DNA of 63,894 nt, counting the filler, from Octopus bimaculoides (taxonomy: Eukaryota), in the NCBI RefSeq assembly GCF_001194135.2. It is 6 parts of 6 records of this genome, joined end to end, with 100 filler letters (N's around TTAATTAATTAA, not from the genome) between each part and the next. Parts side by side here need not be neighbours in the genome. Positions count along the whole stretch, not along the records: positions 1 to 5,689 come from NC_068987.1; positions 5,790 to 24,927 come from NC_068984.1; positions 25,028 to 44,167 come from NC_068992.1; positions 44,268 to 50,490 come from NC_068986.1; positions 50,591 to 60,658 come from NC_068996.1; 1 more part is not named here. One strand, written 5' to 3'. Position 1 is the stretch's first letter; each line of letters begins with the position of its first letter. Positions 100 to 59,188 of the stretch are shown here, piece after piece. The notes below the pieces were generated by a model, which did no database searches, was not told the DNA's origin, and saw only the letters and a list, made by a program, of their open reading frames with translations. The translations under genes were made by a program, and so were the position numbers.

Positions 100-1440
100 A
101 TGCACTATATATTCTTTCTTCACTTGTTTATTACTGTTCTTATTCTAACTCATGTCCATTGTCCAGAAATCTTTCATTGCACATCTGTGACCTCTTCAGC
201 AACACTTTTTCTCCTTGTGTGTGCTCTTGCTCTGCTTAGTCCATTCTGTTATTCTATGATGTGTATTTTTATATGCGCATGTGTTTGTGTCTGTATTTGT
301 GTGTGTGCACATGTGTGTGTGTAGCTGTTCTTAGTAGCACTATGACCCTCACCTCAGCCCTGTCCCCTCCCCTGTTGCTACTGTAGCTGCCATCGTGGTA
401 GTTGTTGTTGTTGCTGCTGTTGCTGTTGTTGTTGCTGGTTGCATTGTTGGTATTGTTGCGACCGTTTGTGAAATTACTGTATATGTATATGGATTTGCTT
501 TCTAAGTTGTTTGTATTCATGCCCTTTATACAGTTTTTTTTATCTATCTCTATTTCTTATATTTATCATAGGTATATGCATACTTGTCTATTGTGTATGT
601 ATTACACTGTTTGTATCTGTCTTTTTCTCCCTCCCTTCTGTCTTTAGTCATCATGTTGTGTAGTCTGATGGTGGTTGTTATTATTCTATTCATGTTTTCT
701 GTTGAGGCTTGGTCTGTCTATTGCTATGTGTGTAGCCTCTGTGGTCTGTCTAAGTGTCGTGTCAGTTCTATACGTTGATAATACCTTAACCTCTATACTA
801 TTAACCAAGCCTCTATGTTCTGCTTGAGCATGTTGGTAGAGCACTGATGAGCCTTTCTCTTCTTTGAGCTCCTGCTAGTCTTCACCTATAGACTCCCCTA
901 TGCTGTATGCTGTCTCTCTGATGTAAGTAGCTGTCATGTTTCTGCACCATCTCTCTGTATATTGTAAGCTATATACTTTATTCCTAACCTTAGTTAACCT
1001 GTGGGTTCATCCTACATACTATACAATTGTTCTCCATTCATGGGGACCTATCAAAGGGATAAGTTCTACAGATCAGAGATTTTATGGGGGCACCAGGCCT
1101 TTCTACTACTTTAATCTGTAGATTAGCCTTATCTAATGCTTTTCTAAAAAAGTATGCTAGTTCACTGCCAGGGGTAGCATCAACGAACATGACATTCTGG
1201 TATTTTTGTTGTCATACCACGAGTTGTCCTTATCTATCTTTTTTCTGGTCCTTTCTGTGCTGTTCCAAGATTTACTCCTGTATAGTGGGCAAATTCCCTC
1301 TGCATCACTCCCTATGATGGCTTTGTACTTAACCCTGGCTCGTTTGTATACTTTAATCCTGTCCCATTGGTCATAACCAAAGAACTGCATGAGGTGGATA
1401 AAGTGTTGTATGTACCTTTCCAATTCTATAGGGTCACACG
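100..1440 (-). mobile_element. Degenerate Penelope-like element (PLE) 3' portion with GIY-YIG endonuclease remnant
   Basis: Hand translation of the minus strand gives QNVMFVDATPGSELAYFFRKALDKANLQIKVVERPGAPIK (~1200-1082). After a frameshift it reads RNKVYSLQYTERWCRNMTATYIRETAYSIGESIGED*QELKEEKGSSVLYQHAQAEH...VKVLSTYRTDTTLRQTTEATH (~990-720), matching the PLE GIY-YIG pattern (xVY...YIGET...EH...LxxH...RxxxEAxxI). Stops and frameshifts are present. Extent of the 3' non-coding part (100-690) is inferred. Confidence 0.7.
160..205 (-). ncRNA. Highly degenerate hammerhead-like relic downstream of the PLE ORF
   Basis: Minus strand reads GUGUUG CUGAAGA GGUCAC AGAU GUGCAAU GAA AGAUUU C UGGAC. Core CUGAAGA and GAAA are intact but stems I and II are imperfect. 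AATAAA lies ~30 nt downstream (127-132). Confidence 0.3.
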
Positions 1441-1456
1441 TGTGAGACACATTTCT

Positions 1457-1597
1457 CAGTTTCCATCTTCCAAATCCACTCACAAAGCTTCAACCTGAAG
1501 CTAGAGTAGAAGACACATGACTAAGGTGCCACACAGTGAGACTGAACCCAGAACTGTATGGTTGCGAAGCAAGCTTCTTATCACACAACCATGCCTG
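1457..1597 (-). mobile_element. tRNA-derived SINE type A, head fragment
   Basis: Reverse complement of the head seen at 11623 and 20362 (CAGGCATGGTTGTGTGATAAGAAGCTTGCTT...GGTTCAGTCTCACTGTGTGGCACC...GTGGATTTGG). Confidence 0.8.
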
Positions 1598-1615
1598 TTG
1601 TATTAACATATTCAA

Positions 1616-1766
1616 ATATAGAAAATATCATTGAAATTAATATTTCTGAAAATACATGATCAGATTTTCAAGGTGATCCAAAATTAGTTTAATTCAAAGT
1701 TGACCTTGAAAACGTTGTGCTAACATGTATTTTTGGAAATATTAATTTCAATGATATTTTCTATAT
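1616..1766. repeat. ~150 bp fold-back element / MITE-like
   Basis: ATATAGAAAATATCATTGAAATTAATATTTC..AAAATACATG at 1616-1658 is mirrored at 1724-1766. An inner pair TTTTCAAGGT / ACCTTGAAAA is also present. Confidence 0.7.
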
Positions 1767-1835
1767 CTAAATACAACAGAAACTATTGTCAGCTTTGTAA
1801 GGTGAATTTTACAATTAAAAATGTGATTTTCCCTG

Positions 1836-56329: not shown

Positions 56330-56545
56330 ATAGTTGGCAGAACCGTTAGCGTGCTGGACAAATGCTAAACGGCATATTCATCTGTCTTTACGTTTAGAAT
56401 TCAAATTCTGTTGAGGCCGACTTTGCCTTTCATGCTTTCGGAGTCGATCAAATAATTGCCAGTTAAGCACTGGGATCAATGCACTAGTCAAACACTTGTC
56501 TCTCCTCCAAAATCTTAGCTTTACGCTTATAGTAGAAAGGATTAT
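56330..56545 (+). mobile_element. SINE type B
   Basis: GTTGGCAGAACCGTTAGCGTGCTGGAC...GAATTCAAATTCTG..GAGGCCGACTTTGCCTTTCATGCTTTCGGAGTCGAT. Confidence 0.8.
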
Positions 56546-58178
56546 TATTATTGTTGTTGTTGTTTAATCATCATCATCGATGCGTCCGTCAAAATACCTT
56601 GCGATATTTGTTCCAGCTCTTTACGTTCTTTGTAGCAGGAGATAGGGTGCAAAGGCATTACAAACCTACTCAGTTACAGTTGTCTGATAGGTATTGTCTA
56701 CATTTCTCAAATGAACCAATGTGAATTTGAACACATTGCAGAGGGTCATCCAAGTCACACTTAGGGATGGATTGAATATTCCCACAGATTTTAGTAGTTA
56801 GCTACGCACACCATGAATTCATGACCTGTACAGTCAACTTAGACAAGATTAGTAAACGCATCTTTCTCAACATAGAAAGTGATTTGGCGTGAATTGCCGG
56901 GTACAATTATTAACAACAAGGAGTGAGCTTCAGTAACGCAGCGGAGACACAAGATCTTCCTCCGAGTACATTTTTCAGAAGAAGCTCATTCTAAACAATT
57001 TTTTGGTTTATTAATTCGCTTGTGAAATAAAAATCAAATCTCATTTTTTTTTCTTAACTTTATTACATAGCGTTGGAAGATTTTTTTTTATTCAATACTT
57101 TATTCAACAAGCTTCTCAATGTTTTGAACAATGGATCGGCTTTTTGTGATGTATTGGTGTCCGCTAGTATCTGGGGAACTAAAATAACCGTACTGCCATA
57201 ACGTCCTCTCTTATTTCATGAAGTTTCATTCATTTTCATGTCACAATCCCGAATATGCATGTGTCATACATAATGACATTGATAAAACATGAAGTACATT
57301 AATGTAGAAGGCAATTATGTACATTATAAGGCTAATAACATACTAAGAGAATTGAACATGCATTTACCCAATTCGTAAAGTTCAAGCTGAACAGGGATCA
57401 TGGCCCAAATCAAAGTATAATATATCTTTGTCACGCGCAGATACTGAATGTTGTGTAATAAGCAAATGTATAATTGTTTCATGAACTTCTGGTACGACAC
57501 AACCTCCGTATATAATGCCTGCACACAATTTACGATCATCTAGTCGTAGGCTATTACCCAGATAACAGAATTAGACATGCCCTCATCACAATATTCAAGT
57601 AAAGAGCCGGAACATATACGAGAAAGCAGACTTCCGAAGCTCTTATGATGCTATCAGGCTTCTGCTATGCAAACGTACAGTTAATAAAACAAAATAACTT
57701 TATATAAATATGAGTTAAATGACTTACACGGTTCGTTCACGGTGTCATTGTCCAGATTTCAAAATACGATCACAAATGAAGTTACTTGCTAAGCGTGTTC
57801 AACTCCTGATATCTCCGAGCAAACGAAAGAGCATTTACGTAATCATTTGACATGCTAGAAATAGCAGCCCGCCCAATCTCCACTCAAAATATGTGAATAC
57901 ATATTTTATTTTGGGCATCCAATCTCTCTTTTGTTTTCAAAACTAACTGACTATAATATCTTCCTCCCCTCCAGCTGTAGAGAGATTATGTGCTTACAGC
58001 CATTTGAGTGACTCACTGGCTGGCCATTACAAACAACCTTCTAAATATAACTGCTCTGTTTTAGAGTGTGCTTCTTTTTCAGATATATGAACTACTGACC
58101 GATATATATATATATATATATATATATATATATATATATATATATATATTGGAAGGTTTGGAGATGATGTACAGGAAT

Positions 58179-58433
58179 TATATATTGGAAAAAAATAATA
58201 ATCAGGTACTCAGATGTCTGGATGGTCGTACATTTACAGATTTTCATTCGTATGTCACATGTTTTATAAATTAGCGCTTTCACCTAGTCTTGTACGGTTA
58301 TCAAAATTTGATAACCTTACAAGACTAGGTGAAAGCGCTAATTCATAAAACATGTGACATACGAAAAAAAATCTGTAAATGTACTCCATCCAGACATCTG
58401 AGTACTTGATTATTATTTTTCTAATATATATAT
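58179..58433. repeat. ~255-bp spacerless palindrome centred on 58306
   Basis: Arms of ~127 bp at roughly 90% identity, e.g. AATTAGCGCTTTCACCTAGTCTTGTA / TACAAGACTAGGTGAAAGCGCTAATT. Confidence 0.9.
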
Positions 58434-58434
58434 A

Positions 58435-59188
58435 TAATAAAGGAGTAATACGCATATGTTAAATGAATTCTTTTATTTCCGACATATGTTTCGAAGATTA
58501 CAAATGGTTTCTTCTAAAGGAATGAGTGATGTTGATAAAGATGTAATCTTCTCTTCAGGGAAATTCATAAGAGCCAACTTAACCGTAAGACATTTCAACC
58601 GAATGTGACAATGGAGCAAAAATTACTTGTTTATACTAAGTTAATATTATTACCAAAGTTTACTTCGATATCCACGTTCTATAGGTGTTGATACAAGGAT
58701 TTACCAATGAATAAAATAAAGTGAAGGGATCTATTTTGTGTAGAGCAGTATTTTATACGTAATAAAGTAAGGAGAAGAAAATATTTATATGTTTTGAATA
58801 CATCTTACGATAAACGTAAACAAACAAACTAAGATTGCTTTCAGAAGCTTTGATATGTCTTAGAAAGTTAAAGAAGACATTTAAAATTCTCAGACGCAGA
58901 ATAATGCCAATAATATAGCCTAAGCAGGATAAATTATTCCTATCTTTGCTGAAGAAAGTAAGGGCAACTAGGGAGATGGAAGTAAGAAGGAGCAATGAAA
59001 TCAAAGGTATAAAGTTATGGGAGCACAAGGTATTGAACTATGTTCAATACGTTGTGCTCATTTATTTACGTGCTTACATCTTTATCAACATCACTCATTC
59101 CTTTGGAAGGAATCATTTGTAATCTTCGAAACATATGTCGGAAATAAAAAAGAATTCATTTAACATATGCGTATTACTCCATTTATTA
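58435..59188. mobile_element. Non-autonomous PLE-like unit: minus-strand hammerhead terminus plus inverted, 5'-truncated duplicate
   Basis: 58435-58546 and 59074-59188 are ~112-bp inverted repeats. Both carry GAAACATATGTC and a downstream AATAAA; only the left copy continues into the CUGAAGA core. Confidence 0.7.
58475..58564 (-). ncRNA. Canonical type-I hammerhead ribozyme
   Basis: AUUUCC CUGAAGA GAAGAUUAC [41 nt] GUAAUCUUC GAA ACAUAUGU C GGAAAU: perfect 6-bp stem I, perfect 9-bp stem II closed by G10.1-C11.1, all core nucleotides present, GUC triplet; predicted cut between 58481 and 58480. Confidence 0.88.

Follow-up and report, generated by a model that had tools for sequence, protein, structure and literature searches.

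What are the short, mostly non-coding repeats with hammerhead ribozyme motifs in the genome of Octopus bimaculoides, and why do some of them lie in inverted pairs with their tails pointing outward? We addressed this question in a stretch of 63,894 nt from assembly GCF_001194135.2 (hereafter the window), which joins parts of six records and is AT-rich (GC 0.356), microsatellite-rich and interrupted by 28 runs of N. A preliminary description had seen in these repeats a distinct system of non-autonomous modules mobilised by Penelope-like elements (PLEs). We conclude that the modules are most likely 3' end pieces (pseudo-long terminal repeat, pLTR, plus tail) of endonuclease-containing (EN+) PLEs, and that a tail-outward pair probably represents one insertion. 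The copies were grouped into family A (54.0-54.3 and 21.1 kb), family B (58.4-59.2 kb), family C (58.15-58.43 kb), family D (30.6, 20.7 and 6.3 kb), family E (41.7/42.3 kb) and a PLE relic, R (0.16-1.46 kb). Comparisons with published systems refer to the available portions of the sources cited by PMC accession or bioRxiv number.

Inverted loci and hammerhead motifs

Repeat pairs were located by self-BLAST of the window after masking of microsatellites. Four inverted loci were recovered with arm identities of 92-95%, namely 41740-41800/42313-42373 (E, 95%), 54029-54106/54197-54275 (A, 92%), the palindrome 58179-58430 (C, 92%) and 58423-58546/59074-59203 (B, 92%). At all four the alignments placed the left copy on the minus strand and the right copy on the plus strand with 3' ends outward, which confirmed the geometry that had been described. 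Within the window, near inverted pairs made up 4 of 9 copy pairs in the hammerhead families versus 2 of 54 in five other repeat families (Fisher p=0.003), and one of these latter two resembles the terminal repeats of a DNA transposon.

The short signature from which the modules had been recognised (GAA, palindrome, NUH) is present, but mostly at chance level. GAAA followed by a palindrome and H occurs at 84 sites in the whole window, and in 47,832 unmasked bases 78 sites were observed versus 46.9±6.2 expected from 100 dinucleotide shuffles. As it is mostly matched by chance, this signature is weak evidence on its own. A full hammerhead descriptor (core, stem II of at least 4 bp, palindrome and stem I of at least 4 bp) matched three sites, two with a canonical core (54062-54097 and 58481-58558, both minus) and one with an A6U core (30575-30601, minus), and none across 100 shuffles. 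The U3-A8 match at 58308 in the right arm of C passes only if stem I is allowed 3 bp, the null shuffles having been run with at least 4 bp only. Two AT-rich matches with one mismatch (26377 plus and 1740 minus) were discarded as weak. Among the best 150 of 222 Rfam matches in the window, which were miRNA-type and microsatellite-driven, there was no hammerhead family. DNA pattern scans gave 20 matches in metagenomes, all GC-rich chance matches without a flanking motif, and 0 matches each in genome contigs and viral contigs.

Thirteen motif copies were compared, the 12 already described and one at 20.7 kb. Eight retain a core (54.1, 54.2, 58.5, 30.6 and 20.7 kb, both arms at 58.3 kb, and the relic at 199), which is absent at 21.1, 59.1, 6.3, 41.8 and 42.3 kb; the whole fold is present in three (the left arms of A and B, and D at 30.6 kb), and no inverted pair has two intact ribozymes. 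Cores in terminal repeats are thus found in families A, B, C, D and relic R, with none visible in E. No strong similarity among the families was detected at the DNA level: for 13 of the 15 pairs compared, similarity was matched by at least 25 of 300 shuffles, the remaining pairs being A versus R, the best one (1 of 300 as high), and D versus E (9 of 300). Of the proposed five or more unrelated types, the lack of strong mutual similarity therefore stood, whereas E has no core and the relic's AGAUUU, named as one of the palindromes, is not palindromic. Support for PLE-type minimal hammerheads in several families and with core variants came from the cores present in A-D and R.

Structure of the paired units

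Unit A is enclosed by a target-site duplication (TSD) of 11-12 bp with one mismatch (54001-54012 and 54327-54338, both plus strand), which identifies it as a single insertion. Its left arm (54012-54107, minus) is an intact minimal type I hammerhead without a tail, with the core CUGACGA from 54097, an extra A, G10.1-C11.1, the palindrome ACGU and H17=U at 54062. The right arm (54118-54326, plus) has an (AAT)n-rich start, the core CUGAUGA at 54206 with a damaged stem II, and a 34-nt tail at about 54293-54326. This extension is confined to the right arm and is common to the single copy at 21.1 kb, a lone stub (21004-21122, minus; self-BLAST and alignment) that begins at GAAA and has the tail without a core. 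An open frame at 54132-54209 runs across the (AAT)n run, encodes poly-Asn followed by IEKYLRN..., and stops at the TGA within the hammerhead core. An Asn-rich stretch also lies in relic R between endonuclease and hammerhead, and both frames recall the Asn-rich inserts of rotifer Penelope (PMC3846280).

The main arm of unit B (58434-58600, minus) adjoins the TA run that closes unit C and carries an intact hammerhead with the core CUGAAGA from 58558, a stem II of 9-10 bp, ACAUAUGU, GUC at 58481 and a 6-bp stem I. It is followed by a body (58601-59070), multicopy by contig depth and without a protein match, and by an inverted 5'-truncated arm (59072-59210, plus) with no core, a tail at about 59181-59210 and a short frame that opens at an ATG within the palindrome and extends across the tail. 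The B tail (about 30 nt, on one arm only) corresponds to a loose end of the family at 58442, carried by 33 and 22 DNA contigs as well as by 22 RNA reads. Summed contig depth in run X1, which is not a copy number, is about 200,000-245,000 across the module and drops to 1,200-8,600 in the body; as the latter is still multicopy, the middle of unit B is not unique DNA. Within the family about 60% of depth gains one stem I pair, and the variants listed lie in loop II. Inside the body, 58805-58930 is a piece of a far more abundant repeat with the top RNA depth of that stretch, and three contigs omit about 206 nt there. One plus frame of this piece resembles an endonuclease C-terminus by eye, but protein searches gave no match.

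The arms of unit C form a direct and perfect fold-back, joined 3-4 nt ahead of the core and flanked by TA runs on both sides. The left arm (58149-58304, minus) has the core UUGAUAA (U3-A8), the palindrome AGCGCU and H17=A, and at its outer end, adjoining (TA)n, about 30 extra nt that are presumably the tail. The right arm (58305-58430, plus) carries the same core at 58308-58314, a stem II with a C.U mismatch at its base, a 3-bp stem I and H17 at 58340. Position N7 of the family varies between T and A (13-27% of DNA depth).

The arms of E contain the hammerhead-like 3' half only, i.e. GAA, a palindrome and half of stem II. The left one (41700-41800, minus) has an outer extension of about 30 nt and an imperfect palindrome, the right one (42310-42394, plus) carries AAUCGAUU, and both begin at (TA)n. 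Because the core is lacking in both arms, E could not be confirmed as a family of hammerheads. Of a 15-bp duplication (41843 and 42399), one copy lies inside the E pair and the other just beyond it; the two may be the TSD left by a separate insertion that comprises the right arm only, in which case the E arms are perhaps not one insertion.

The paired units thus share an inverted, 5'-truncated copy at the 5' side (A, B and C), a one-sided tail (34 nt in A and about 30 nt in B; C and E are asymmetric by arm alignment alone) and TA/AT-rich insertion sites. It could be asked whether they are instead miniature inverted-repeat transposable elements (MITEs) of DNA transposons or fold-back elements whose hammerhead likeness is incidental. 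The TA-rich targets would suit such elements, and real terminal inverted repeat (TIR) elements occur in the window at 39.4-40.2 and 31.05-31.30 kb, but these lack a descriptor match, and the full descriptor was not met by chance. Furthermore, the same modules also occur singly, their arms are unequal, their tails one-sided and their starts different. We therefore agree with the preliminary description that the pairs are not MITEs; this explanation is largely refuted for A-C and is very improbable overall.

The PLE relic and the search for coding parents

Coding sequence of a PLE was found in relic R. A broken coding relic (689-1459, minus) contains the reverse transcriptase (RT) thumb, a CxxC linker and a GIY-YIG endonuclease, and a decayed hammerhead (160-205, minus) with the core CUGAAGA from 199 lies in its 3' repeat. 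The endonuclease piece has 56 relatives, the longer ones with the RT motif YVDD, and these align back to 689-1459 with E values down to 3e-49 (tblastn); the cadherin-repeat protein P0008 was excluded as unrelated. A weak Pfam match to GIY-YIG, below the curated cut-off, was obtained in 2 of 10 relatives scanned. A very decayed frame at 27600-28600 (minus) looked by eye like a second relic, with a GIY..YIG-like spacing and, near 28578 and 27555, remnants that resemble hammerheads. It found no support in a homologue search or with a hidden Markov model of 18 relic homologues, which matched only 0.7-1.5 kb.

A link to an open reading frame (ORF) with RT and GIY-YIG was found for R only. The proposed non-autonomous status of the modules was nevertheless not supported, as 5' ends differ among copies, one motif stands behind the PLE relic, and B continues into a multicopy body, which would all be expected if the copies are 5'-truncated.

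Two-strand insertion as the probable origin of the units

Published PLE insertions typically have an inverted 5'-truncated copy and a tail of 30-40 bp at one end (PMC8557442); tails have also been described together with TSDs of 8-10 bp and palindromic junctions between head-to-head copies (PMC3846280). The units in the window resemble those of EN+ PLEs (Penelope/Poseidon, Neptune and Nematis) in their head-to-head arms, palindromic junction, one-sided tail and hammerhead in the repeat, in a TSD of 8-12 bp where readable, and in microsatellite or AT-rich targets; unlike typical EN+ units, they are very short and mostly without coding sequence. For the Poseidon element PAc of the anole, cutting and extension of both target strands was reported in vitro, RT being initiated at two internal positions that have the tail between them (Frangieh et al. 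2024, PMC11167929). By analogy, these two properties would account for tail-outward pairs with one tail.

In the octopus, a PLE protein has probably likewise cut both target strands and copied RNA inward from each cut. If RT began at two neighbouring internal positions, one on either side of the tail, two facing short cDNAs would result, one of them with the tail; made from a staggered cut, these would yield tail-outward arms, one tail and a TSD. Early termination would yield stubs of 50-600 bp, and priming on one strand only would yield single stubs. We infer this link between the anole chemistry and the octopus loci by analogy. The ribozyme would act, if at all, as a dimer in transcripts of intact tandem parents and is predicted to be inert in inverted stubs.

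Several observations weigh against the origin of the modules as PLE ends inserted in this way. A TSD around the whole unit was seen in one of the four units (A); none was found at the outer ends of E, and at B and C, which are flanked by TA runs or a gap, TSDs are unreadable. A and E span N gaps in a region where exact duplications adjoin such gaps, and their arm spacing is uncertain, though the arms differ by 5-8%. The enrichment value comes from one window, with families chosen once pairs were already known. D forms no inverted pair (3 of 3 window copies), and its strand-switch joint was not found in any of the four DNA and RNA runs. Finally, no coding parent was found for A-E in protein searches of 16, 39 and 1 candidates, none of which was significant, and Pfam returned no match for 8 of 9 fragments; the PLE link of these families consequently rests on structure. 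A search for a motif common to the tails returned none that was significant (42 of 1000 shuffles as high as the best pair).

Expression, folding and cleavage

The preliminary description had expected read-through transcription of the inverted loci to give both long double-stranded RNA (dsRNA) and self-cleaved ends. Reads matching the B/C stretch at 99% identity or more numbered 0 of 645 and 0 of 391, though reads of family members exist, so that no transcript of the B and C loci themselves was detected. In standard fragmented RNA-seq, a weak test, read ends did not pile up at the cut site of B/C or D, nor were ends found at the H17 sites when cuts at NUH were looked for; the sole end pile-up listed in the B/C stretch is at 58578 (6 molecules). 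Mate directions were balanced, so the RNA strand could not be assigned. T>C differences seen in RNA and not in DNA (58339 and 30538) were considered as RNA editing, but this was rejected, since the reads carry other differences, fit a few diverged expressed copies and have no DNA counterpart from matched material.

In the predicted fold of read-through RNA the sense hammerheads of A (with a 10-base gap filled), B and C pair with the antisense arm and are buried in the resulting long duplex. When two sense copies were folded together, those of B were predicted to join via their palindromes with stem II kept, whereas the minimum-energy dimers of A and D were predicted not to be ribozyme-shaped. 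As the antisense arm would be transcribed first and no second sense copy is available for a dimer, self-cleaving ends are unlikely at inverted loci and this part of the expectation fell, while long dsRNA from read-through is plausible.

Other copies of C and B showed strand-switch joints in RNA, at 58341/58354 (5 and 1 reads) and at 58505/58604 (4 reads), respectively. They were not seen in DNA contigs, and such reads can be library artefacts. The C joint at 58341 is the first base past the predicted cut site (6 reads), a hint that comes from at most one or two loci. Together with the family-member reads, these joints are what would speak for retention of the inverted pairs by the host as regulatory sources of dsRNA and self-cleaved ends. 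Given the decaying arms, the predicted sequestration of the sense ribozyme, the lack of cut-site pile-up and the absence of reads at 99% or more, we regard such a role as scarcely credible.

Type I hammerheads in short units are also found in non-LTR retrozymes, which would be excised from tandem transcripts, circularised and reinserted; the modules share with them a small size, lack of coding sequence and relation to PLEs (PMC7229834; bioRxiv 10.64898/2026.07.22.740005). A head-to-tail D junction occurs in one DNA contig, along with a few RNA joins of 2 reads each. However, retrozymes form tandem arrays of 150-450 bp units with mostly canonical hammerheads (PMC7229834), whereas the window copies are single or inverted with minimal PLE-type motifs, and no head-to-tail pair was present among the 13 copies. 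No recurrent back-joint exceeded the threshold in B/C or D data, from libraries unsuited to circles. A retrozyme origin therefore appears improbable.

Family D and its A6U core

None of the three D copies is paired; they occupy TA-rich sites, and each has a 5' end of its own. The longest (30481-30800, minus) has the complete fold with the core CUGUUGA (A6U) at 30601-30595 and H17 at 30575. The copy at 20620-20786 (plus) has a shorter 5' end, the same core, a decayed palindrome and (TA)n on both sides, and a stub at 6324-6374 (plus) begins in stem II and has no core. Apart from position 6 of the core, where A is expected, D has all features of a minimal PLE hammerhead.

We examined D in 3,491 and 2,743 RNA reads and 9,319 and 6,605 contigs aligned at 82% or more. 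U6 occurs in both window copies that reach the core, and none of the four runs has a variant of at least 8% at 30598; the same holds for core positions 3, 5, 6, 7, 8 and 9. U6 is thus the family state of D among sequences aligning at this threshold. In the DNA runs H17 is the sole ribozyme position above 8%, with U and C only, whereas the next 88 nt downstream contain 10 such positions; conservation is high in the 5' flank too, and low variation is thus not unique to the ribozyme. At H17, C accounts for 39% and 67% of the depth in DNA and for 67% and 70% of RNA reads. A U4 to A change makes up 4% of depth in X1 and reaches about 8-10% among RNA reads. Certain changes in stems and palindrome were seen in RNA only. 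The restriction of H17 to U and C in D, the variable N7 in C and the stem I extension in B mean that family variation fits the fold, while no two-sided compensatory stem change was directly seen in the variant listings of B, C and D.

Summed depth of D is 2-4 million versus 35-130 for single contigs, which is not a copy number, and it falls near 30673-30680. This abundance and depth drop, and the lack of an ORF parent for A-E, would fit a scenario in which A and D above all are true non-autonomous derivatives, short masters without any coding past that depend on the protein of an autonomous PLE; such derivatives have been published (PMC8557442; bioRxiv 10.64898/2026.07.22.740005). On the other hand, the three window copies have three different 5' ends, the reference copy has a local duplication just where the depth drops, loose ends in D RNA run into sequence also present in the 30.6 kb copy, and B extends into a multicopy body. 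We consider this scenario, which is compatible with an origin of the modules as PLE ends, possible rather than likely.

Natural core variants described by Perreault et al. (2011, PMC3088659) include U3-A8 covariation, A6C (kobs under 0.1 per min) and U.U at 10.1-11.1. By analogy with A6C, the A6U change in D would be expected to lower cleavage. A6U in a very abundant animal repeat is absent from the variant section of that paper, and the CUGU core is absent from the searchable supplement portions of PMC4209133. An A6U core was not found in the literature searched, where the one paper listed concerns twister ribozymes, and may already be in print in a larger variant catalogue. It is a more doubtful suggestion that D is a hugely amplified non-autonomous Penelope derivative with the first natural A6U hammerhead, its stems, palindrome and permitted cut-site base being retained, which would still cut with protein help or serve as a non-catalytic fold for mobilisation. 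Insertion by PAc requires no more than part of the pLTR and is as efficient with a dead ribozyme (PMC11167929), and this suggestion, if true, would bear on why PLEs retain a ribozyme that is dispensable for insertion in vitro. If D was amplified with an impaired core, it would serve as a natural experiment on the importance of catalysis for the spread of PLEs.

Comparison with published hammerheads

Metazoan genomes have been described that each contain many families of minimal hammerheads, most of them present as single copies left by truncated PLEs (Cervera and De la Pena 2014, PMC4209133). Dual motifs 100-700 bp apart on opposite strands and the U3-A8 core are reported there as well, and the supplement lists the cores UUGAUAA and UUGAAAA (Schistosoma), an AGCGCU-A palindrome (shrimp) and palindromes of 8 nt. 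The octopus modules share with these hammerheads CUGANGA, G10.1-C11.1 and a palindromic stem III; the minimal features are complete in A-left and B-left and accompanied in C by U3-A8 and a 3-bp stem I. They differ in the CUGUUGA core of D, which was not found among the supplement rows searched, in the C.U mismatch at the base of stem II in C, and in the 40-nt loop II of B with no extra base after A9. As in our data, no RNA-seq reads ending at the hammerhead cut site were reported in the anole study (PMC11167929).

Geometry, tail and core variants are hence published features of PLE insertions, and the idea of a distinct system was not upheld. Most likely the units are largely ordinary, with the published insertion pattern in new families. 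A literature search found no published description of such hammerhead families in octopus, and a recent octopus repeat annotation counts Penelope families with no mention of hammerheads. From a single animal genome, the window contributes at least four PLE end families that bear hammerheads, together with clean examples of a two-strand insertion footprint. The importance of this is modest, and the residual novelty is the family-wide A6U core of the 30.6 kb family.

Other repeats in the window

Further fold-backs with arm identities of 77-87% and no full hammerhead match lie at 1609-1773, 4409-4494, 28652-28729, 42011-42084 and 59021-59059. Exact direct duplications (83 and 236 bp, 100%) adjoin N gaps at 18261-18604 and 31375-32244 and are probable assembly artefacts. 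An ORF fragment at 60325-60660, without a Pfam match, resembles what we take to be the restriction-like endonuclease end of a non-LTR retrotransposon. The element at 31055-31301 is about 250 bp long, has inverted termini, lies between TA runs and is MITE-like, with no hammerhead match. At 39400-40190 inverted termini enclose a decayed interior, which we assume to derive from a mariner-type transposase, and an end related to this element is present at 20158-20313.

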